In this document: piece after piece, positions 1 to 11,855 of the stretch
Numbering within the stretch: position 1 is the first letter of the stretch
Layout: every line of letters begins with the position of its first letter
Source: Macrostomum lignano
Taxonomy: Eukaryota
NCBI GenBank assembly: GCA_002269645.1
Contig: NIVC01001857.1
Location: 1-64,000, forward strand
Direction: 5' to 3'
DNA: 64,000 bases
Notes under the pieces: model-generated
What the model was told of the DNA's origin: nothing
Seen by the model: the letters and a program-made list of their open reading frames with translations, nothing else
Database searches by the model: none
Program-made: the position numbers and the translations under genes

Positions 1-2109
1 TGGGAGCATGAAAAATTGGAAACTTAGTGTTGTTCCGCAATCATCCGAGCGATACTTGTCACTAAGGGCGGAATTCCCTGTTGCAAGTTACGTAAAGAAC
101 GGAAAAGTTGTGCCAATCATGTTTACAATTCAGTTCATCGACTCGCTCTGCTTTTTGAAGGAAGTTTGTCCAATTTGTTTGCTAATCTTCCCGAAGCTGA
201 ATGCAAGCTGACAATGCAAATGCTTGAGTCAAGACCACATCTTTCAAGAGAGCTACTTCGAAAAAAAGGGATTTTCCCATATGATTACCTCACAGGATTT
301 GAGATTCTCGAGCAGTCGGTTTTGCCGCCTAAAGATGCTTTTTTTAATCGACTTTCCGATCGGGGAATTTCCGACGACGACTACAATAGAGCAAGAGCGG
401 CATGGGCGGCATTTCAATGCAAAAGTTTGAAGGATTATATGCTCGCCTATCTTGAAATGGATGTAAGGCAGCTGGCTGACATTTTCGAGACATTCCGACA
501 GGCCAGTCTGAAAGAGGACGGATTGGATCCGGTACACTACTTTACTACTCCTGGTTTGTCTTACGACTCAGCTCTAAAGTCGACTGGAGTGGTTCTAGAG
601 CAGCTGACTGATGCTGACATGTATCATCTGTTTGAGAAGGGAATACGAGGAGGCATGTCCTTCATTAATGTGCATTGCGTCAAAGGTAATAATCCTAGCT
701 TGCCAGGTTATGATGATCAGCAAGAGAGTGTAAGCCTCATGCCGATCGATATGAACAACTTGTATGGCTTTGCCCTGTCGCTTCCGCTTCCATGCAGGGA
801 ATTCAGGTGGGTACCGGAACAGGAAATCCAGTTCTGGGACTCCAATCGGTTTCTGTCACTCAATCCAGAAGCCGAGATCGCCTACCTTGTTCAACTCGAT
901 CTAGAATACCCAGCTGAGATTCACGATTCGACTCAGGAGTTACCGTTTGCACCTGAAAAATCAAAACCACAGCCAGATCAATTCTCGCCGTACATGGCCG
1001 AACTATGGAAAGAGATTGCTGAACAGCGAACTGGCAATGCTGAAGCTAAGTTTCAAGCAACGGAGAAGCTTCTACTCACCTGTACCGACAAGGATTCTTA
1101 CGTAGTTCACAGCACCGTTTTAAGATTTTACCTGCAACACGGAATGCGGATCAAGTGCGTCAAAAAAATGATTTCGTTCAAGCAGGAAAATATTTTCGCG
1201 CCGTACATTGCCAGCAACAATGAAAAAAGAGCTTTGGCAACTTCCGAGTTTGCTAAGGATTTTTACAAATTGAAAAACAATTCTCTCTTTGGAAAAACTA
1301 TGGAGAACGTTCGAAAAAGATGCGATGTTCGAATTTGCACTAACCAGACTCAAGCAGAAACTTGCGCCTCTCGACCAAACTGTGCCGCATTCTCGATTAT
1401 CAATGAGTCGTTGAGCATTTTTCAGCTCAAAAAAGATAAAGTCACGCTTGACAAGGCCATTTTCGTTGGCCAGGCAGTTCTCGATCTCTCTAAGATGGCC
1501 ATGTACAGCCTACTATATGACAGGCTCCGACCGCTGTTCTGTCATTCAGACGGTTCCAGAGACATGATGCTTTGCGGAGGTGATACTGACTCATTTTTTC
1601 TAGCTTTCAAGAATCATGATTTAACATCGGAGGTAATCCCGAAGCTTAGAGAGGAAAAAATACTTGACACATCCAACTATTCTCGAGACCATCCGCATTT
1701 CTCTGAAGAGTTAAAAGGAAAGCTGGGCTGCGTTAAAGATGAATCTGCTGGTGGAATTTACCAGGAGTGGATTCTTTTGCGTCCAAAACTTTATTCGTTT
1801 CTCCCTGCCGAGAATTCGAGTGCAAAGATCAAGAAAACTGCCAAAGGCGTGAAGCAGTCAGTAGTAAGACAGCAAATTTCGCATGCGAACTATGTCGACG
1901 CGTTCGAGTCCAAGCAAGAGCAGATGGTTGCCATGACAGCGATTGTTTCCAAGAAACACGAAATCTTCACGTCGGTCATGGAGAAAAGAAGCCTATCGGT
2001 GTGGGAGGATAAGCGAGTGTGGCTTAGCAGTAATCGAAGCCTGCCCTACGGACACTATGCGCTGACGCCCGCATCCCACGATCAGCTGAAGCGCATCCGA
2101 CTGGTCTAG
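1..2109 (+). CDS. polB: Protein-primed family B DNA polymerase (pPolB), 5'-truncated by the window edge, apparent 1-nt frameshift at 160-161
   Basis: Motifs FIDS (exonuclease region, in ORF 8..211), KGIFPYDY, YLEMDV (ExoIII), IRGG, DMNNLYG (A), KLKNNSLFGK (B), GDTDS (C), KLYS, KGV. Adding one G at 160-161 joins ORF 8..211 to 166..2109 (FIDSLCFLK-GSLSNLFANL). The frame is open to the window start. Confidence 0.95.
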
Positions 2110-2684: not shown

Positions 2685-2696
2685 TTTATTTTTATT
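2685..2696 (-). terminator. Tandem AATAAA polyadenylation signals overlapping the TBP-like stop codon
   Basis: Minus strand reads GAA TAA AAATAAA at the end of the leftward gene cluster, facing the polB 3' region. Confidence 0.65.
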
Positions 2697-3264
2697 CAAT
2701 GGAAAGAACTACATTGAGTAGACGCATGCTATCGGTATGCAACTGATTCAAGGACCGAGCTCCACTGAGAACAAAAGAGCCGCTGTGAAAAAGCAGACAT
2801 TTACAAAAGTTTAAATTGAAAATTAAAGCAGAAAAGGATTCTGGTTCATATTCGGCGTTTGGGATAATTGATTTTAACATTAATAAGGAAAGTGCGGAAT
2901 GAACTGGGAGCTGTCCATGAGCAGTAATAGTTTTAATTCGAACACAAATTGTTTGATGAGGCAGCAGTTGAGCCGGCACTCTCCGATGCAGCATAGCCAC
3001 GAAGCGACGGGCAGCCCTTTTGGCGTCTGCGTGGGTCTTGGCACCGCAGATGCTCAGTTGCCCAGTAGGGTAGAGTAGGAGAGTCACTCTGGGAATCCGC
3101 ATCCGCTTGATGAGCACCCGGGGCCAGACGGGCCGGTAGATCACATGAGCCATGCTGAGAGCCAGTTCCCGTAGAGGCAGCTGAGCGCCCCTGCCACCAT
3201 CCAGTCTCAGATCTACTCCGCCAACCAGATTGGTCACTCTTAGGGCTGTAGCTGGTGGGCTCAT
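2692..3264 (-). CDS. Divergent TATA-box-binding protein (TBP)-like protein, 190 aa from ATG 3264
   Basis: Two TBP repeats: VTNLVGGVDL...YRPVWPRVLIKRMRIPRVTLLLYPTGQLSICGAKTHADAKRAARRF and YEPESFSALIF...CLLFHSGSFVLSGAR. These match TBP IQNIV / YNPKRFAAVIMR / LIFSSGKMVCTGAK and YEPELFPGLIY / LIFVSGKVVLTGAK. Confidence 0.9.
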   Translation of the reverse strand: MSPPATALRVTNLVGGVDLRLDGGRGAQLPLRELALSMAHVIYRPVWPRVLIKRMRIPRVTLLLYPTGQLSICGAKTHADAKRAARRFVAMLHRRVPAQLLPHQTICVRIKTITAHGQLPVHSALSLLMLKSIIPNAEYEPESFSALIFNLNFCKCLLFHSGSFVLSGARSLNQLHTDSMRLLNVVLSIE

Positions 3265-3305
3265 TTCGATCGTCAACTTCTTCACCAAATCTGCTTCTGC
3301 CAACT

Positions 3306-3784
3306 TTACTGCTCGTGTGCCACGGACACTGCTCGCTTCTTAAGTTGATGCAGAACTTTGGCTTAAGCCAACTGTAGTGCAGCAACGAATTTCTCACTGC
3401 ACAGCCAGTATCTGAATCTTCAGTCGAGGGTGCTCCCAAATCTTCTAGGTTATAAACCTGTCTTCCAAGCAGCTCAGTCAGAAAAATCGACTTCCTTTCC
3501 CCATTTGACCAGATCGGACCACTGGCAATGCTCAGAATGTCTTCCGCCAGTTCCATGTACGGACGGGTTCCATCATTCCACTTAAACTGGTGCAGACTCT
3601 TAGATAGCTGTCTGTAGTAAACTCGCATGTCAGGTGAGACTCTCTCCCATGGATACGGAGGTGCGTACACATGGTGAGCAATGTGGTAGCTCCCCGCTCT
3701 GATTTGAACAACTGCCAACTCCTTCACAACAAATTTTTTGCTTGTGCTGTTGCACGGGAATCCTTGGAAGTCAATGTAGTTCAT
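3306..3784 (-). CDS. Polinton accessory protein, possible DnaQ-like exonuclease fold (~159 aa after a 1-nt correction; ORF track gives 283 aa, 2933..3784)
   Basis: N-terminal IDFQGF...FVVKELAV...PPYPW...HQFKWNDG...VYNLEDLG...CAVRN...W pattern, which I recall from Polinton-type elements. Adding one A near 3357-3359 ends the ORF at TAA 3306, 42 nt before the TBP ATG. The fold assignment is inference. Confidence 0.55.
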
Positions 3785-3910
3785 GATGCAGCTTTCCTTC
3801 GAAAATTTCGGAGTCAGTCCACCTTCTTATATACTTTTCTGGCAGGCAATTTCAGCCAGGCTGTGTTGCTCCCGTACCCCTTGACTAGACTCTCCTGTTC
3901 TTTCTCCAGT

Positions 3911-4504
3911 TCACCCCCTGCTGGTTGCCATTTTCTTCTTAACTGATTTACCAACAGCGGAAAGCGGAACATTAAGCTTTTTCTGCTGCAGAAAATCGAT
4001 GAACTCGTTCCACCCAACTGGTTCACGCTCACATGGCGAATCCCTCACTGTGTGCTGAATCAAGTCCAGTATGTTTGAGGAAGGGATTGACGTGCCTGCG
4101 ATTTCCACCTCCCCGTTTTCACAAACTCGAATCAGCTCTGGATTGGTGGACAGGATCGTCCACAGACTGCGAGCCCTGGTTTTGAATTTCTGTGGCACCG
4201 ACTTGCTGATCTTCTCTTCCCAGGTGCTTATCTGGGGTGTCTCTGTTTTCATCAACTTGGCTTCAGTATTGCGTGCTCCTTCTTTTCCAGCGTGCTTGCG
4301 CTTGGCCAGCAAACTTTGCATTGCACTTTGGTACATGGCGGTTTTCACATCTTCTGGACAATCCTCGGCATACAAGATGTCATCGCATTTCTTCTGAGCC
4401 TGCTTCAAGTCAGCTTCAGTGGTAGTCTCATTTGGCTTCAAATTCTGCATCAACATCTCATACTCTGCTTTAGGAATCAGAACCATTTCTGAAAATTTGT
4501 TCAT
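3911..4504 (-). CDS. Conserved Polinton protein of unknown function (197 aa)
   Basis: ATG-initiated intact ORF in the compact gene cluster. The MVLIP...VPQKFKTRARSL...GEVEIAGTSIPSSNILDLI...PVGWNEFIDFL...NVP pattern is typical of the Maverick gene near the ATPase. Confidence 0.7.
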   Translation of the reverse strand: MNKFSEMVLIPKAEYEMLMQNLKPNETTTEADLKQAQKKCDDILYAEDCPEDVKTAMYQSAMQSLLAKRKHAGKEGARNTEAKLMKTETPQISTWEEKISKSVPQKFKTRARSLWTILSTNPELIRVCENGEVEIAGTSIPSSNILDLIQHTVRDSPCEREPVGWNEFIDFLQQKKLNVPLSAVGKSVKKKMATSRG

Positions 4505-4808
4505 TTTGCTTCTTCTTCTTTACCAGCTTAAGCAGAATCGGGAGTATTTTGATGAAGCCAGCCTTCAACAAGTCTGTCTTTCTTCTTTTGTGAGTAATTT
4601 TTCGAATTATCTCTTTTGACTTTGCAAGAACAGCTTTTTCATCGAGCGAAAACGATAGATTGTTTTGTAAGAGATTATGGCAGGCCTCGACAAGAAAATA
4701 ACGCACTTCTTTTGGACAATTTTTTATCAACAGCCGCTTGAAGCGCACGGTATATTTAGGTGACGCAAGAACCGCAAAAAGACTTGCATATGAATCAAGC
4801 ACTTCCAT
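4470..4808 (-). CDS. Small basic conserved Polinton protein (112 aa from ATG 4808)
   Basis: Intact ORF between the ATPase and the 197-aa gene. It has an LIKNC...EACHNLLQNNL...basic tract...GFIKILPILL pattern with an amphipathic C-terminus. Confidence 0.6.
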   Translation of the reverse strand: MEVLDSYASLFAVLASPKYTVRFKRLLIKNCPKEVRYFLVEACHNLLQNNLSFSLDEKAVLAKSKEIIRKITHKRRKTDLLKAGFIKILPILLKLVKKKKQNEQIFRNGSDS

Positions 4809-4849
4809 TGCGATGAAAACAATAGCTGATAAAAACAAGCTTCACTTTC

Positions 4850-5496
4850 TTAAGCAAATACAAGATGGGGTCGCTGGTTGGGCAGAATTCTGGCCCGCAC
4901 TCGCAGCTCATCGGGAGTTGATGGGTGAAAGTCTAGGAACAGGTAGGCTCCCCTGCCCTGCGCGGTCACGTGCTTGAACACTGACAGCAGAAAGCCGGGC
5001 TTCTCTGTAAAGCACTGCCTGCCCAGTGCTGCAATCTGCAGCTGGTCTCGGGGTTTTTCAAGATAGCTAAGTACATTACATTCAAGCTCATTGTTCGCGA
5101 CTCTTTTCCCTTGAAAAATATATTCTGAGTCAGCATCACCAAAAAGCACGGCAAGTGATGTGCGATTCCTGTGAAAAAATTTCGCATTGAAGCAGAGTTT
5201 GAAGTTTCCTCTATTAAGTCATCGAAAACAACCAGGTCATTGGGCCTAAGTGCTGCCTCGATGTTGGTGGGAAATCCCTGGCGCAGCTGCACACCTAGGC
5301 TGTTCAGTTCTGCATGGCCTGCCTGTGAGATCCCATAGTACCACAGAACTCTGCCAGGCTTCACATCAAACATGACGTCTCTGTACTGGATCAGGTGTTC
5401 GACAAAGGTTGTTTTTCCTGCATTGGTGGGCCCGCAGACAATCATGCAGCTTCCCTGCCTGAGGCGGATATCGTAGCAAACTTGCTTTTCTCCCAT
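4850..5496 (-). CDS. A32/FtsK-like genome packaging ATPase (~215 aa after a 1-nt correction at 5050-5053)
   Basis: Walker A GPTNAGKT, Walker B LVVFDD, TQN motif. The KN-PRD motif is restored by one extra C, joining ORF 4966..5529 to 4850..5149. Confidence 0.92.
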
Positions 5497-5519
5497 GTTT
5501 AATGCATAAATATTAGAAA

Positions 5520-6032
5520 TCACGGACATCTTTTTCTTAAGTTGGCTTCAAACCTCTGTAAGATTCTATCATTCAAATGATTTTTCTCATTAGCATGCAA
5601 ATGCTTCAAAATCCCCTCAAATGACCGATTGAACAGAAACTTTTGATAAGCAAAATAGATGCAAAACATTCCGCATTTATTAGAGTTAGCACATTGAACT
5701 CTGTTTATATTGCTTCGGAGCCAAAAGCCAGTTGTTTTAATCTCTCGAAACAAATTATAAACCAAAGATAAAATTTCAGGTTCCCAGCCGAGGGAGTTGA
5801 ACAACTCAATGCGATTTCCTTGCCCAACATAGCACACCACCCAGTGACCAAATGAGCCATTGTGCTGAAGTAGGACAAAAACAAACTTGTTTTCAAAGGA
5901 AATTGATGATCTAAATTTTCTTTTTACATTCAAGGGCAGAGAATTTTTATAGCGCAAATGTAAAGTAACTATGAGAAATTTTTGGTAAGGCAAAAATTTT
6001 CTGGCGAGATTAAGTAGTTGAATTGCATCCAT
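5520..6032 (-). CDS. Adenain-like cysteine protease (virion maturation)
   Basis: GHW...ELFNSLG...RVQ...KCGMFC arrangement (His, Asn in place of Asp/Glu, oxyanion Gln, Cys); 170 aa; lies next to the capsid gene. Confidence 0.88.
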   Translation of the reverse strand: MDAIQLLNLARKFLPYQKFLIVTLHLRYKNSLPLNVKRKFRSSISFENKFVFVLLQHNGSFGHWVVCYVGQGNRIELFNSLGWEPEILSLVYNLFREIKTTGFWLRSNINRVQCANSNKCGMFCIYFAYQKFLFNRSFEGILKHLHANEKNHLNDRILQRFEANLRKRCP

Positions 6033-6037
6033 GTCAA

Positions 6038-7320
6038 TTAAGAGGAATAGTCCAGCAAAAGCTCTCGGTGCTTGGTGACCTCAATCAGCGAGTCATACAG
6101 GCACATAGCAATCAGGGACACCGCTTCATTCAGAGCCTGTTGGAAGCGAATCTCCAGCCGCAGGTTGCCCTCCTTCTGTCCGTACCACAGAGCCGCTCCC
6201 TCGGGTGTGAGATCGAATGCAAACACCGTGGTGTTGTTGGAGAAGAGCTGGTAGGGGATCCACGGACCGAGTTTGTGTGGCTTGCAGATTGACAGCTTTT
6301 CAGGTAGTGCAAGTATTCTCTTACGAAGGAATTGTTTTCAGGTGTGAAGGCGCCGTGGCACACGGTTTCCCCACCTTTCTTTAGAGCCAATCGGCTAAGG
6401 TTGAAGCTCTGGAACTGTAACGGGCTCGCGTGATGATGACCGTTGAATGCTCGGTGGCTCACGAAGGCCAGCATGATGAACTTCGGCAATTTTCCATGAG
6501 TGAATCCTTCAATGTTTTTTGACTGAATACCCTGGGGTAGGATGAAGTTCTGCATTTCAGTTCGCTCGATGGGATACAGTGCATTTTGGTTTGTCAGCCC
6601 CTGCTCATGGGCCAGGCTGATGTGGGGCATCACTTTGACTCGGCGAAGATGCAGAATGCTGTGAGAGATTTCCATTCGGTATGCCGCGTTGTTTGCATTC
6701 GGGGTTCTGATGGCAAAGGCCCCATCGCTGGGGACCAGTTTGATGTGCAGGTGCAGATTGCTTAGCAGAAACACTGGGCACTGGAAAACATCGCTGAAGA
6801 GCGGCCCCGCATACTCCATCCATTGGGATTCCCTGTGGCTCTCCGTGTGCTCTTCAGCTGCCGAGTTCGGCTCCAGGAAGCCAGCAGGGTAAAGTTTTAG
6901 TTGCTGGGCATCGGATGAGCTCATTAGTGCTTTGAAGTACGCATGGTAGGGATAGAGCTGGTCTCCACCAGACACCACTCGCTGGTTAATGCTCACAATT
7001 ACATCTGAGAAGGCTGTAGACAGAACAAAATTTTCTGGGTGCACGTCACTGTCTCTGCGCTCGGTGATGATGCCATCTCCATCTCGAACATCCTCCCTCA
7101 GCAAACCCCCATCCAGTCTCACAAGGCGGCAGCGAATATAAAGAAAAGAATTAAGCAGATCTGTATATTCATCGGCAGATTGGTGGCAGTCAAATTCAAT
7201 GGGAGAGTTTGCAACAATGGAATTAACTGGGTGAATATCAACATAAGTAGCTTTTTCAATGCAGGTTTGTAGAACGGGCGTCTTAAATAAATCAAGTCTG
7301 GGATTGAATCCGTAAGCCAT
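6038..7320 (-). CDS. Major capsid protein (double jelly-roll; ~427 aa after a 1-nt correction at 6297-6300)
   Basis: N-terminus LDLFKTP...YVDIHP...PIEF...YTDLLNSFLY; C-terminus VFAFDLTP...GNLRLEIRF...LIEVTKHR. One extra A joins ORF 6130..7320 to 6038..6226. Confidence 0.9.
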
Positions 7321-7322
7321 GT

Positions 7323-7699
7323 CTATGACAGAGAGTCGAGCACGCGTTTCACAGTTTTCTTGCTGACTTTTTGCTTTCGCTTTCCTCCGCCTGCTCTATT
7401 CTTCTTTGCTTTCGTCTTCCTATTCTTAAGCTTTTTCCCACTAGCCTTGCTCGACCTCTTACTGCGATTTCCACCAGTTGCCTTTCGGGTGCCCTTCTTT
7501 TTCTTCAATCGTTTCGGACTTGCTTCAGTATTTCTTTTGCGCCTGACGTTGCTAAGCGTCGAGGCTGATGATGATGATATAGCCGCTGGCGGAGGCTGGT
7601 ATGTCATGATCCCTGGGAAGCTCCCACAGCCATAGAGTGCAGGCTTTTCGTGTCCTGTCCTCACCCCGAATATTGCTGGATTAGCTGCTGGTAGTTCAT
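7323..7699 (-). CDS. Lys/Arg-rich putative DNA-condensing core protein (~125 aa after a 1-nt correction at 7664-7667)
   Basis: ATG 7699 overlaps the minor capsid stop (ATGA). The corrected N-terminus is MNYQQLIQQYSGVRTGHEKPALYGCGSFPGIMTYQ, followed by a very basic tail (RRKR, KKKK). LYGC/G fits the adenain cleavage consensus. Confidence 0.65.
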
Positions 7700-8513
7700 T
7701 GAATGCGTTTCTCCTGAATTTGAACTGTAAGCAGAACAGGGCTGTGAGTCTGTGCAATCAGTGGGCAACCATAGATGTCCCGCAGCTGAACTCGAATGCT
7801 GTGAAGAAGACTGATTCGTTGAATCGGGAAGAATATTGTTTTCTTAAATATTTTTGTTTGATAGTTGCCCCATTCAATGCCAGCTTTCATTCCAACTGTT
7901 CTCAACAAGGAGCTCCAGTTGCAATTAGTTGACTCAACGATACTGCAGTGCACATTGATTAAGCTGGTGCGCGGGCAGCCAATGCAATGCTCGGATACGC
8001 GGCTCCCTGGCTGGATTTTCACAGCCTGGTTTCCAAATCCCAGCCAATGCAGAATTTTACTAGATGGAAGAAACAGCTCTGCTCTCGCAGTGTTGTTGTG
8101 CACCACAGTTCGTGAGTTGCGGATTTCGAACTTCATACCAATTCCCTGTTGCCACTACGCCCCATCAGGCCGGACTCATCAGCCTCCATCTCAGACTCCC
8201 TGTCACTCATTGCATCAAAGAACAGCGAATCAGAGTTGGCCAGCAGCTCATTCAGGCGCTCCACCAGCTCCTCCACTCTAGCAAAGCGTCCGGGTTGAAG
8301 AACCAGGGCCTCATGCTCTCTTCCATCTGAGACAGTGAAGCAGTAAGGCTCGTCAACATTGAACCATGCAGCAGGCAGATGGATTTCAGCCAGACCTGCC
8401 TCATAGTCCACATTTCGATCCAAGTAAATAGGTGAAGGCAGGTAAAAATTAAAGTCACTAGGAGTACCTTCAGCATGCTCACTGTTAATCAAAATAGTTC
8501 GCATTATAATCAT
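7696..8513 (-). CDS. Minor capsid (penton-like) protein (~272 aa after a 1-nt correction at 8144-8146)
   Basis: N-half TPSDFNFYLPSPIYL...YEAGLAEIHLP..WFN; C-half LGF...SLINVHCSIVE...LLRTV...IRVQLRDIYG. One extra G joins ORF 8133..8513 to 7696..8136. Confidence 0.82.
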
Positions 8514-8541: not shown

Positions 8542-9612
8542 CTAAACCTTTCTTAAGTCTTTTTCATCCACCCAGCCAGTCGAGTCGTAGCCCGCCCATT
8601 TCACCAGATAGCGAATTTTTCCCTTCCGCTTCTCCGTTTTCAGGATCTTCTCAATCACATACAGCCGCTGTGAGTCCGGGACAGCCTGCAGCTCGTGCTC
8701 ATGGAAGAGTCCTCGAATCTCTTGCCCCCGCATGTCTTTAATCTTGTACATGTAGGGATAATGTTTTGGGGCTCTGCTCACCACGGTGTACACTTCCTCA
8801 CTCCAGCTCGCTTTGTATCCCTTTTTGAATATCCGTGGAGCATTGGAAATTCTCACTGACTGGTTTTCAGCGAACTTAGGCTTCTTTAATTTTTCTAGAG
8901 TCTCGACTGCTTTTCCATCGTACAGGTTCATCCACACTTCAGATTCATTCTCTTTGCAGACACTAGTGGGTGCCATTTTGATGCTTCTGTGGTAGGTATT
9001 GTTGTAGGATTTTACCAGCTTAGGCAGCACATCAAGCCAGTGCAGTGTGCTCTTGTAGGTGAAGTAGCGCCACATTCTACTTTTCAGAGTTCGATTCCAT
9101 CGCTCAATGACAGCTGCCTTCTGCTCGCTGTTAGTTGGGAAAGCCAGAATCCCTCTGTCAATGCAGTATTGACGGAAAGTGGAGTTGATAAATTCCTTCC
9201 CCTGATCTGTGCGAACTGTGCGTGGCTGGCGCTTTGAACTTCTCAGTATGCTCTCGAATGCTGACTTCACTTCTGCAGCAGATTTATTTTTCAGTGCCTT
9301 GGCCCAAGCACATTTTGAGAGCACGTCAATGCATGTGAGAATATATTTGTAGCCTTTATTATGCTTTGCGAATGGAATCATTTCCACTAAGTCAAGTTCC
9401 CACTGATCATCGATTGCGCGCACTATGATTGGGGCCCTTGGATATCGCCTCCTAGCTGGCTTGTGCAGAGTGTGCACTGGCTGCTCGCTGAGCCACTGCT
9501 CAATGCTCTTTGCAGATATTCGATCACCTCTTTGCCTCACTTCATGCAGCAACTTTGAGGCACAAGAAAAACTAGCCGGTTGCTCAGGTTTCAAATAAAT
9601 TTTCTCCATCAT
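8542..9612 (-). CDS. int: Retroviral-like (rve) DDE integrase with C-terminal chromodomain
   Basis: DDE triad in WELDLVEM / RTDQGKEF / IERWNRTLK; C-terminal YVIEKIL...YLVKWAGYDSTGWV chromodomain; intact 356 aa. Confidence 0.96.
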   Translation of the reverse strand: MMEKIYLKPEQPASFSCASKLLHEVRQRGDRISAKSIEQWLSEQPVHTLHKPARRRYPRAPIIVRAIDDQWELDLVEMIPFAKHNKGYKYILTCIDVLSKCAWAKALKNKSAAEVKSAFESILRSSKRQPRTVRTDQGKEFINSTFRQYCIDRGILAFPTNSEQKAAVIERWNRTLKSRMWRYFTYKSTLHWLDVLPKLVKSYNNTYHRSIKMAPTSVCKENESEVWMNLYDGKAVETLEKLKKPKFAENQSVRISNAPRIFKKGYKASWSEEVYTVVSRAPKHYPYMYKIKDMRGQEIRGLFHEHELQAVPDSQRLYVIEKILKTEKRKGKIRYLVKWAGYDSTGWVDEKDLRKV

Positions 9613-9676
9613 GGGTTTATCAAGATACGTGCCTATCCACCTGCTCTAGCTGTACAGTATTTTTTCTTAAGTAGAA

Positions 9677-9932: not shown

Positions 9933-10709
9933 TCAGTTATCAAAGCGAACATTGGGCTGCAGCCTCATCGCGTCCTGCCGACGAAGTTGAAATGGCAGCT
10001 TTCGCTTCCTGCTGCTGCTGCTCACCGTCGAAGCCGCTGCATGCGCCCTGAACTGATACCACACCGGATCTTCCTCAAGGTTGGTGTCCCGCTGCGGAAG
10101 CAGTCCAGCATCAGAATCAACCGAAGGTATCGGTGTGGATGTGATTGGCTCAGTCACAATGCGCGGCCTTGTGGGCGAGCTAACGTCCTCGTCATCAGCA
10201 TGATCTCCGCCCTCATCAGTCTCCATTATGGGCTTCGTGTCCTGGTCAGCCTCCAACTTGAGCTTCTTGTCCTCTTCCTCCTCTTCCTCATCAGACTCCA
10301 GCTCGTACTGCATTGTGTTCCTCAAGGGAGCCACCAGCTGACCGTCGATCCAGGAGGCGATTTTCCAGAGCTTCTGCCACAGCGGCGGAGTCAGTGGTAC
10401 GGCGTTTCGTCTCAAAAACTCCTCGCAGCAATCTTCCGGCAGCCGTTTGAGCCAAATGATGCCGCCTTTGACTTCCACAAACTTATCGAAGCCGAGTTTC
10501 ACGACCTTGGGCTCGTTGTTGCGTGCAGAAATCACAAGTGAGCGTTTCACCTCCTTCAATTTCTTCCATTGGTGAACATTCAGGTTGAATCCTGGGACGC
10601 CTGGCTTCAGACTTGCCGTGCTGCCGTGTCGGTAAAATTTGCGAATAGCGATAAATTTTTGTCCTTCAAACTCCTGGACTTGTGCCTTATAGCCTTCACA
10701 GATGTCCAT
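9933..10709 (-). CDS. PC4/Sub1-like ssDNA-binding protein with a second degenerate PC4-like repeat, acidic tract and basic putative NLS
   Basis: YKAQVQEFEGQKFIAIRKFY...KPGVPGFNLNVHQWKKLK matches the PC4 domain. A second unit reads KLGFDKFVEV...AVPLTPPLWQKL, followed by SDEEEEEED and RKRK. Confidence 0.82.
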   Translation of the reverse strand: MDICEGYKAQVQEFEGQKFIAIRKFYRHGSTASLKPGVPGFNLNVHQWKKLKEVKRSLVISARNNEPKVVKLGFDKFVEVKGGIIWLKRLPEDCCEEFLRRNAVPLTPPLWQKLWKIASWIDGQLVAPLRNTMQYELESDEEEEEEDKKLKLEADQDTKPIMETDEGGDHADDEDVSSPTRPRIVTEPITSTPIPSVDSDAGLLPQRDTNLEEDPVWYQFRAHAAASTVSSSSRKRKLPFQLRRQDAMRLQPNVRFDN

Positions 10710-10813: not shown

Positions 10814-10874
10814 CTTATATACCCTCGACCGAACCACCCCAAACCACCCATCCCACTCCGGGCTCTGTGATTGG
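10814..10874 (-). promoter_or_regulatory. Pol II-type promoter of the PC4-like gene: CCAAT box, GT-rich box, TATA box
   Basis: On the minus strand, GCCAATC (CCAAT at 10874-10870), then GGGTGG tracts, then TATATAAG (10821-10814), ~105 nt upstream of ATG 10709. Confidence 0.65.
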
Positions 10875-10914: not shown

Positions 10915-11855
10915 CTTATCTCTGCAGTGTTAACCACCCCCAATGCAAAGAGATAGGCCGCCTCTCCTCCTATCTCTGCAGTGTTAACCACCCCAATGCA
11001 AAGAGATAGGCCGCCTCTCCTCCTATCTCTGCAGTGTTAACCACCCCCAATGCAAAGAGATAGGCCGCCTCTCCTCCTATCTCTGCAGTGTTAACCATCT
11101 CCAGTGTAAAGAAATAGGCCGCCTCTTCTCCTATCACTCCTGTGTTAAGCAGAGATAGAGCTCATATCTCTGCAGTGCTTAGCCGTCCCCAATGCACAGA
11201 GATAGAGCTCATATCTCTGCAGTGCTTAGCCGTCCCCAATGCACAGAGATAGAGCTCATATCTCTGCAGTGCTTAGCCGTCCCCAATGCACAGAGATAGA
11301 GCTCATATCTCTGCAGTGCTTAGCCGTCCCCAATGCACAGAGATAGAGCTCATATCTCTGCAGTGCTTAGCCGTCCCCAATGCACAGAGATAGGGCTCAT
11401 ATCTCCGCAGTGTATTTTTCCCTATACATTTGCATTGCCGCCTATCTCGCCAGCGCTAGTGCGGCAGTATCATGAATCGCCTCTATCTCCGCAGTGCTTA
11501 GCCGTCCCCAATGCACAGAGATAGAGCTCATATCTCTGCAGTGCTTAGCCGTCCCCAATGCACAGAGATAGAGCTCATATCTCTGCAGTGCTTAGCCGTC
11601 CCCAATGCACAGAGATAGAGCTCATATCTCTGCAGTGCTTAGCCGTCCCCAATGCACAGAGATAGAGCTCATATCTCTGCAGTGCTTAGCCGTCCCCAAT
11701 GCACAGAGATAGAGCTCATATCTCTGCAGTGCTTAGCCGTCCCCAATGCACAGAGATAGGGCTCATATCTCCGCAGTGTATTTTTCCCTATACATTTGCA
11801 TTGCCGCCTATCTCGCCAGTGCTAGTGCGGCAGTATCATAATTCGCCCTACTACT
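10915..11855. repeat. Putative right terminal inverted repeat region with 54-bp and 47-bp hairpin-forming tandem units and a 366-bp higher-order duplication
   Basis: 54-bp unit about 3.5 times (10916-11130). 47-bp units start at 11151, 11198... and again at 11517..., an offset of 366. The block ends in ACTACT. The matching left TIR is outside the window. Confidence 0.75.

Follow-up and report, generated by a model that had tools for sequence, protein, structure and literature searches.

Viral and cellular TATA-binding protein (TBP) variants have been described, among which the TBP mimics of the beta- and gamma-herpesviruses, such as KSHV ORF24, stand closest to the gene reported here from a Maverick element of Macrostomum lignano. 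As presented in the available text of PMC12529657, these viruses resemble Mavericks as we envisage them in having no RNA polymerase and in leaving their early genes to host TBP, and the virion genes of KSHV lie behind a variant TATA box, TATTWAA, that is read by the viral TBP-fold protein; the likeness of the Maverick box described below is one of sequence pattern only. ORF24, large and composed of several domains, makes direct contact with Pol II in a six-protein complex, and its model is called incompatible with direct TFIIB binding (PMC12529657, available text). By contrast, the Maverick protein, which we designate vTBP, is a bare 190-aa core in which the TFIIB stirrup is intact. With neither the Pol II-binding N-domain nor the extra C-domain typical of ORF24, vTBP falls outside that class.

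TBP-like proteins of large dsDNA viruses (Ravarani 2020, PMC7221094, available portion) share the two-lobe fold with vTBP, which has matches in BFVD, and the Atlas neighbours of the lineage-2 protein introduced below are mostly viral TBP clusters. In the same portion of that source the large-virus TBPs are mostly accompanied by their own TFIIB, whereas none was found in the Maverick element: a TFIIB family search of the genome gave 15 matches at 7 loci, none of them high-copy. Their stirrups are variable (about 40% conserved) and 90% of them keep the L5.1 phenylalanine (PMC7221094), whereas vTBP keeps both glutamates and has a tyrosine for an N-lobe phenylalanine. The metazoan paralogue TRF2/TBPL1, which serves a subset of promoters (PMC4422821, available text), is like vTBP in having lost intercalating phenylalanines, but the residues lost are different ones and vTBP has a TATA-shaped candidate site.

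Mavericks, Polintons and adintoviruses share a protein-primed DNA polymerase B (pPolB), an rve integrase, a packaging ATPase, a protease, inverted ends and a 6-bp target duplication (PMC8502044, in the part available). A 'TBP' label appears in the figure legend for one adintovirus-like element in that paper (Starrett 2021), the accessible text of which holds no TBP family, residue, selection or promoter analysis and the supplement text of which gave no match. The main text of the Polinton papers examined makes no mention of TBP or TATA, and in the open literature consulted we found neither a family of Maverick TBPs nor a late box described, although annotation of this kind could be present in subscription journals, in Repbase or in supplements on bioRxiv. 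The novelty claimed in the original prediction was therefore slightly overstated in view of the 2021 label, although as a family the Maverick TBP seems undescribed in the sources available.

The element and its genes

The window, by which we mean the whole 64-kb stretch of DNA analysed, carries a Maverick/Polinton, as identified by the genes that flank vTBP, which encode pPolB, a protease of adenovirus type, an integrase (rve with chromodomain) and PC4. Its features are as follows.

214..2109 (+): C-terminal portion of the protein-primed DNA polymerase B, which in another copy is 1152 aa long
2685..2696 (-): pair of AATAAA hexamers at the stop codon of vTBP, a likely poly(A) signal separate from the box
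2692..3264 (-): vTBP (type A), Maverick-encoded TBP-fold protein of 190 aa, final gene on the virion-module strand
about 2900..2950 (no strand): recurrent recombination boundary inside vTBP, between virion module and polymerase arm, from subfamily comparison and a loose contig end at 2913 in run X3
2933..3784 (-): exonuclease-like ORF (a Maelstrom-like lead only), its frame reaching about 110 codons into vTBP
4470-4808: ORF of gene X, preceded by the box at 4847..4854
4966..5529 (-): putative packaging ATPase with P-loop, frame broken in the window copy; weak Pox_A32 match in a relative
5520..6032 (-): adenovirus-type cysteine protease
6130..7320 (-): putative major capsid protein, frame broken here; conserved in all three lineages
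7696..8513 (-): putative minor capsid protein, in two pieces in the window copy
8542..9612 (-): rve integrase with chromodomain
9933..10709 (-): PC4-domain protein
10814..10821 (-): canonical TATA box TATATAAG preceding the PC4 gene, a candidate early, host-TBP promoter
11350..11854 (no strand): right terminal inverted repeat, ending ACTACT

The element ends at 11854, where about 500 bp match, in inverted orientation, the left ends of three sibling copies. Its terminal repeats have ends of the AGT type, and the one sibling copy of which both ends were compared shows a target duplication of 6 bp. The putative capsid genes had no library match and are named by size, place and conservation. Between positions 1 and 8513 the window copy has frame breaks in the 5' part of polB, in the ATPase and in both putative capsid genes, part of which may be assembly error because contigs of four sequencing runs (of a type that we guessed) show small indels there; no indel is listed in vTBP in these contigs, which span the whole element, including intergenic DNA, without joints. 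Canonical TATA boxes, often TATATAAG, precede the PC4 gene, the left-arm gene and the terminal genes of lineage 3 (window 10814-10821(-); L055:3068; L125; L135). The host flank, at 29000-55000 of the window, contains long simple and short-period tandem repeat tracts.

Fold and relationships of vTBP

The ORF at 2692-3264(-) comprises 190 codons in the ORF list, and its translation contains all the motifs quoted in the original prediction. The complete two-repeat TBP core proposed there is borne out, as Pfam TBP (PF00352) matches vTBP in two stretches at 87 bits against a curated cut-off of 22.9, placing two TBP lobes above threshold. Solved TBPs are matched at E values of 2e-18 to 3e-10, and the AlphaFold model (pLDDT 96) is a saddle with TM scores of 0.79-0.84 to solved TBPs, a structural support that is partly circular because the alignment behind the model included TBPs.

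The identity of vTBP to host TBP is 29%. Types A and B of the protein, defined below, form a branch separate from host TBP and TRF2 (SH-aLRT 98 or 78 in two quick trees with long branches), so that the phylogeny suggested at the outset places vTBP on a branch of its own. A branch uniting all three Maverick lineages has an SH-aLRT of 92, again with long branches, and the relative P0174 fell outside it. That vTBP is a recent copy of host TBP or TRF2 is disfavoured, as it groups with neither paralogue in the quick trees and its identity to host TBP is low. Host TBP and a TRF2-like gene both lack introns across the core region and are present at three loci each (L051:2210-2866, L053:1842-3014).

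Relatives in public collections (P0002-4, P0006-9, P0030 and P0174) extend the vTBP family beyond this assembly, and a public protein with 99% identity to vTBP bears the source label Macrostomum lignano, in line with this flatworm as the host. Scans of viral contigs with vTBP, capsid and ATPase alignments gave no confirmed locus. In a metagenome scan, which did not recover the family members that protein searches had revealed, there were 26 loci with 19-29% identity that we took to be ordinary TBPs.

Copies, selection and recombination

There are at least 152 vTBP matches in the genome (150 of 231 candidates were scored), of which 25, the window protein itself included, are identical to the window protein. 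They split into type A, at about 73-100% identity, and type B, at about 38%, the latter with 26 matches of at least 150 residues in one genome search. In all 20 stretches examined vTBP lies beside Maverick genes and is always the last gene on the virion-module strand, and this last gene terminates in AATAAA in 6 of the 8 copies checked, both exceptions being type B.

Among nine type A subfamilies dN/dS is 0.13-0.41 in 36/36 pairs, which rejects the idea that vTBP is a neutral relic; the gene is thus present and constrained in sibling copies, and type A is free of the neutral decay that would have spoken against a functional TBP. The N half has dN/dS values of 0.06-0.45 and the C half, in the 28 of 36 pairs that are unsaturated, of 0.05-0.33. 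One type B pair has dN close to dS (0.040/0.033), indicating decay after insertion. Subfamilies are mosaic: in several of them the virion module and the vTBP N-lobe are 93-99% alike and the C-lobe with the polB arm only 50-80%. The faster change of the C half arises only because the boundary at about 2900-2950 links this half to the polymerase arm, which is divergent. We reject positive selection on the C-lobe as an explanation, since the faster change tracks dS and this boundary.

In both types, A and B, the exonuclease-like ORF extends without a stop for at least 105 codons into vTBP, in a frame other than that of vTBP (window 2933-3264(-); L045:4220-5101). The chance of the overlapping frame staying open under synonymous shuffling is 0.006-0.024 in each of the four genes tested, and in one copy checked the frame stops earlier.

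An altered but conserved DNA face

We compared residues in 9 type A and 4 type B proteins (n=13), seven of them from public collections, using what we take to be the yeast TBP numbering, which we checked on the colinear host TBP. Unchanged relative to TBP in 13/13 are N69, V71, T112, L114, F190, F207, E186 and E188, whereas F99>Pro, F116>Tyr, T124>Cys, Q158>Lys, N159>Thr and V203>Lys are altered and invariant in all 13, and V122 is Ser or Thr throughout. Relative to canonical TBP, vTBP thus has two of the four intercalating phenylalanines and one of the two central asparagines. These patterns uphold much of the original reading of the window protein: the acidic C-lobe stirrup that contacts TFIIB in TBP (E186, E188) and both C-lobe phenylalanines (F190, F207) are present in every relative, the second N-lobe phenylalanine is a tyrosine and the second-repeat asparagine a threonine (IKT). 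The replacement of the first N-lobe phenylalanine by tryptophan was a register error; aligned without gaps, between identical residues that fix the register on either side, F99 falls on Pro48 and Trp47 on the preceding arginine position (R98).

At 21 positions that we take to constitute the DNA face, identity between types A and B is 0.65, compared with 0.35 overall and 0.34 at 18 neighbouring positions (p 1.5e-4). To judge from these alignments, the DNA face, though altered, is the best-conserved surface of vTBP. The N-lobe basic helix, the surface for TFIIA, TAF1 and Mot1, carries a net charge of +2 to +6 in the 9 type A proteins and of -2 to -4 in the 4 type B proteins. The basic TFIIA/TAF helix of the earlier reading, acidic in type B, thus does not appear to be a feature of the family. 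Taken together, DNA face, stirrup and helix indicate conservation in this family of an altered DNA face and of the stirrup for TFIIB, but not of the surface for TFIIA/Mot1.

A box upstream of the virion genes

The virion strand carries eight copies of an 8-bp box, YWTAAGAA:

3337..3344 (-): CTTAAGAA, 80 nt before the vTBP start, within the upstream ORF
3824..3831 (-): TATAAGAA, 47 nt before the exonuclease-like ORF
4847..4854 (-): CTTAAGAA, 46 nt before ORF 4470-4808 (gene X)
5534..5541 (-): CTTAAGAA, ahead of the packaging ATPase, 42 nt from its second Met and 12 nt from its first
7423..7430 (-): CTTAAGAA, 110 nt before the putative major capsid gene
7841..7848 (-): TTTAAGAA, 149 nt before a basic putative core-protein gene
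8550..8557 (-): CTTAAGAA, 44 nt before the putative minor capsid gene
9664..9671 (-): CTTAAGAA, 59 nt before the integrase gene, intergenic

The box patterns were fixed after seeing the data, from unbiased k-mer rankings, in which TAAGAA leads all 6-mers and TTAAGAA all 7-mers across types A and B. The virion strand, 7069 nt long, has 8 sense and 0 antisense occurrences, against a mean of 0.73 and a maximum of 3 in 200 shuffles. All 8 lie 42-149 nt before a gene start, in zones with a coverage of 18% (p 1e-6), and 8 of 10 genes are preceded by a box, the protease and gene Y being those without. The signal is confined to the virion strand: the whole window is not enriched (13 boxes, 12.4 expected), and the box is absent from the left arm and polB of the copy checked. 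In four subfamilies the boxes are 88-98% conserved, compared with 60-80% in their flanks; several are within coding sequence, and conservation extends to the intergenic sites. In type A a box precedes the vTBP gene itself, whereas type B vTBP has a canonical TATAAAAG about 50 nt upstream; the type A arrangement fits feedback better than a clean early-late switch.

Three lineages, each with its own box

The TBP gene is not peculiar to this element: a TBP-like frame is present in 9/9 Maverick families examined, belonging to three lineages. A TBP-less Maverick, sought as a control among the families of the genome by capsid searches (the best 95-129 of 393-487 candidates, so that further families may exist), was not found, and because all nine families carry such a frame the box and the TBP gene cannot be dissociated.

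Lineage 2 comprises families C1, C2, D, E and H, in which the TBP-like frame lies upstream of polB and has at least 84 matches in the genome (96 scored). Its Pfam TBP scores are 31.2, 29.1 and 25.7 bits in three families and 21.2 bits and no match in the other two. These frames start at a splice-acceptor-like site without Met (L107:2428-2985, L097:845-1396, L117:8169-9590, L138:2516-3598), and that of family D continues into a deoxynucleoside kinase domain. The frame of lineage 3 (families F and G; L136:227-763, L130:410-1003) is weaker, scoring 22.6 bits in G, just below the cut-off, with no Pfam match in F and profile E values of 7e-10 to 2e-8; an alignment-seeded model aligns to yeast TBP with Z 14.3 and an rmsd of 3.1 over 155 residues. 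No pPolB was found within 30 kb around four F and two G copies. A Fic/DOC-domain ORF adjoins a lineage-3 copy (L135:7912-8691), with an ATAAATA motif before it.

Each lineage has its own box. The lineage 1 box YWTAAGAA has sense/antisense counts of 8/0, 7/0 and 5/0; the lineage 2 box TWTAAGYA has 5/0, 5/0, 5/0, 5/1 and 4/0, where 0.3-0.9 are expected and one shuffle of family E reached 5; and the lineage 3 box TATAAATA has 6/0 and 6/0, where 0.13 is expected. Cross-lineage counts, for three boxes in three lineages, are 0-1. The canonical TATAAATA at equivalent places in lineage 3 marks the sites as TATA-type. Where lineages 1 and 2 combine Tyr-Pro at F116-A117 with a G as the sixth base of the box, lineage 3 has retained Phe and has A, a covariation of residue and box that spans three lineages and perhaps represents a single change.

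Proposed mechanism and alternatives

To our knowledge, Mavericks have no RNA polymerase. We think it probable that vTBP is a Maverick late-promoter factor that recruits host TFIIB and Pol II. Host TBP would transcribe the early genes, such as PC4 and the left-arm ORF, from ordinary TATA boxes, and vTBP would then bind YWTAAGAA before the integrase, capsid, ATPase and accessory genes. Its C-lobe, with two phenylalanines retained, may kink the 5' half of the box, while the rebuilt N-lobe (Phe/Phe replaced by Pro/Tyr, Val by Ser/Thr and Thr by Cys) would accept G at position 6, and the intact acidic stirrup would recruit host TFIIB and Pol II. TBP touches the 5' half of the box with its C-lobe and the 3' half with its N-lobe (PMC1636458, available text), so that the rebuilt lobe is the one that would face the new G, a base that wild-type yeast TBP did not select at positions 6-7 (PMC1636458). 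Binding to the box, the contact with TFIIB, the start sites and the late timing are what we infer from the sequences. The shifted promoter specificity, combined with host TFIIB recruitment, that was originally suggested for vTBP gains indirect support from the changed but conserved DNA face, the invariant stirrup glutamates and the candidate box.

A different explanation is that host TBP reads the boxes and that vTBP is a decoy or antagonist that titrates TFIIB, TFIIA, NC2 or Mot1, or represses early genes. An invariant stirrup in a protein that has lost half of its intercalating phenylalanines is in keeping with this, and host TBP might read the sites, since the lineage-3 box is canonical and wild-type TBP has cavities that can take G at positions 3 and 6 (PMC1636458, available text). 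However, the conserved surface is the DNA face and not the factor-binding helix, which is acidic in type B; lineage-specific boxes would be unexpected if one host TBP read them all; and of 20 lineage-1 sites 13 begin with C and 15 have T at position 2. We regard this explanation as unlikely, and a DNA face conserved more than any other surface speaks against the decoy titrating TFIIA, TFIIB and NC2 that the original prediction offered as its second option. Alternatively, vTBP could be needed for late transcription as part of a complex, in the manner of TRF2 or ORF24, while another element protein (PC4-domain, exonuclease-like or unknown) reads the sequence. TRF2 does not bind TATA boxes (PMC4422821, available text), ORF24 needs ORF34 and Pol II for stable binding (PMC12529657, available text), and in both types there is an overlap of vTBP with the exonuclease-like gene, while in type B vTBP also faces PC4. 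Yet a TATA-shaped box of 8 bp is the footprint of a TBP, and tblastn found neither the exonuclease-like nor the PC4 gene in those stretches of lineages 2 and 3 that we examined, which makes such a division of labour rather improbable.

TAAG is a baculovirus-like motif, and this core of the lineage 1 and 2 boxes might be a late promoter read by a co-infecting large DNA virus, with vTBP in another role; virophages that borrow giant-virus promoters, as described in the literature available, offer a precedent. Lineage 3 has TATAAATA at the same places, however, and the distance of at least 35 nt to a usable start codon fits an upstream TATA element, so that a helper virus appears the least probable of the readings considered here. 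It is also very unlikely that the box is no promoter at all, reflecting codon bias or a 3'-end signal, with vTBP a selected gene of unrelated function. In tandem genes the upstream region of one is the end of the previous one, and some sites read Leu-Lys or Leu-Arg, but the sites before vTBP and the major capsid gene lie mid-ORF, where cleavage would truncate the upstream gene, no box follows the last gene, and intergenic sites are conserved as well. With two of its sites in the middle of an ORF, and with AATAAA at the end of the last gene, the box is unlikely to be a 3' signal.

Returning to vTBP as a late-promoter factor, the comparison with KSHV suggests that it may work like ORF24, and a viral-TBP strategy for late transcription with a candidate cognate promoter seems undescribed in Mavericks. 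More tentatively, and with rather less confidence than we place in the mechanism itself, a fast-evolving TBP may belong, hidden until now, to the core genes of many animal Mavericks. The matched TBP and box of each lineage could then amount to an orthogonal late-transcription code, which would set the timing of virion-gene transcription by host Pol II and stop lineages resident in the same host from activating one another's promoters.

How Mavericks, lacking an RNA polymerase, control their virion genes is not addressed in the literature searched, and a named factor with a named 8-bp site makes late-gene control directly testable. The vTBP and box pair would be a minimal counterpart to the herpesvirus late system, and the three natural TBP/box pairs in one animal form a set for learning how TBP specificity changes. 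Together, vTBP and its box suggest that these elements may run an autonomous early-to-late programme without a helper virus.
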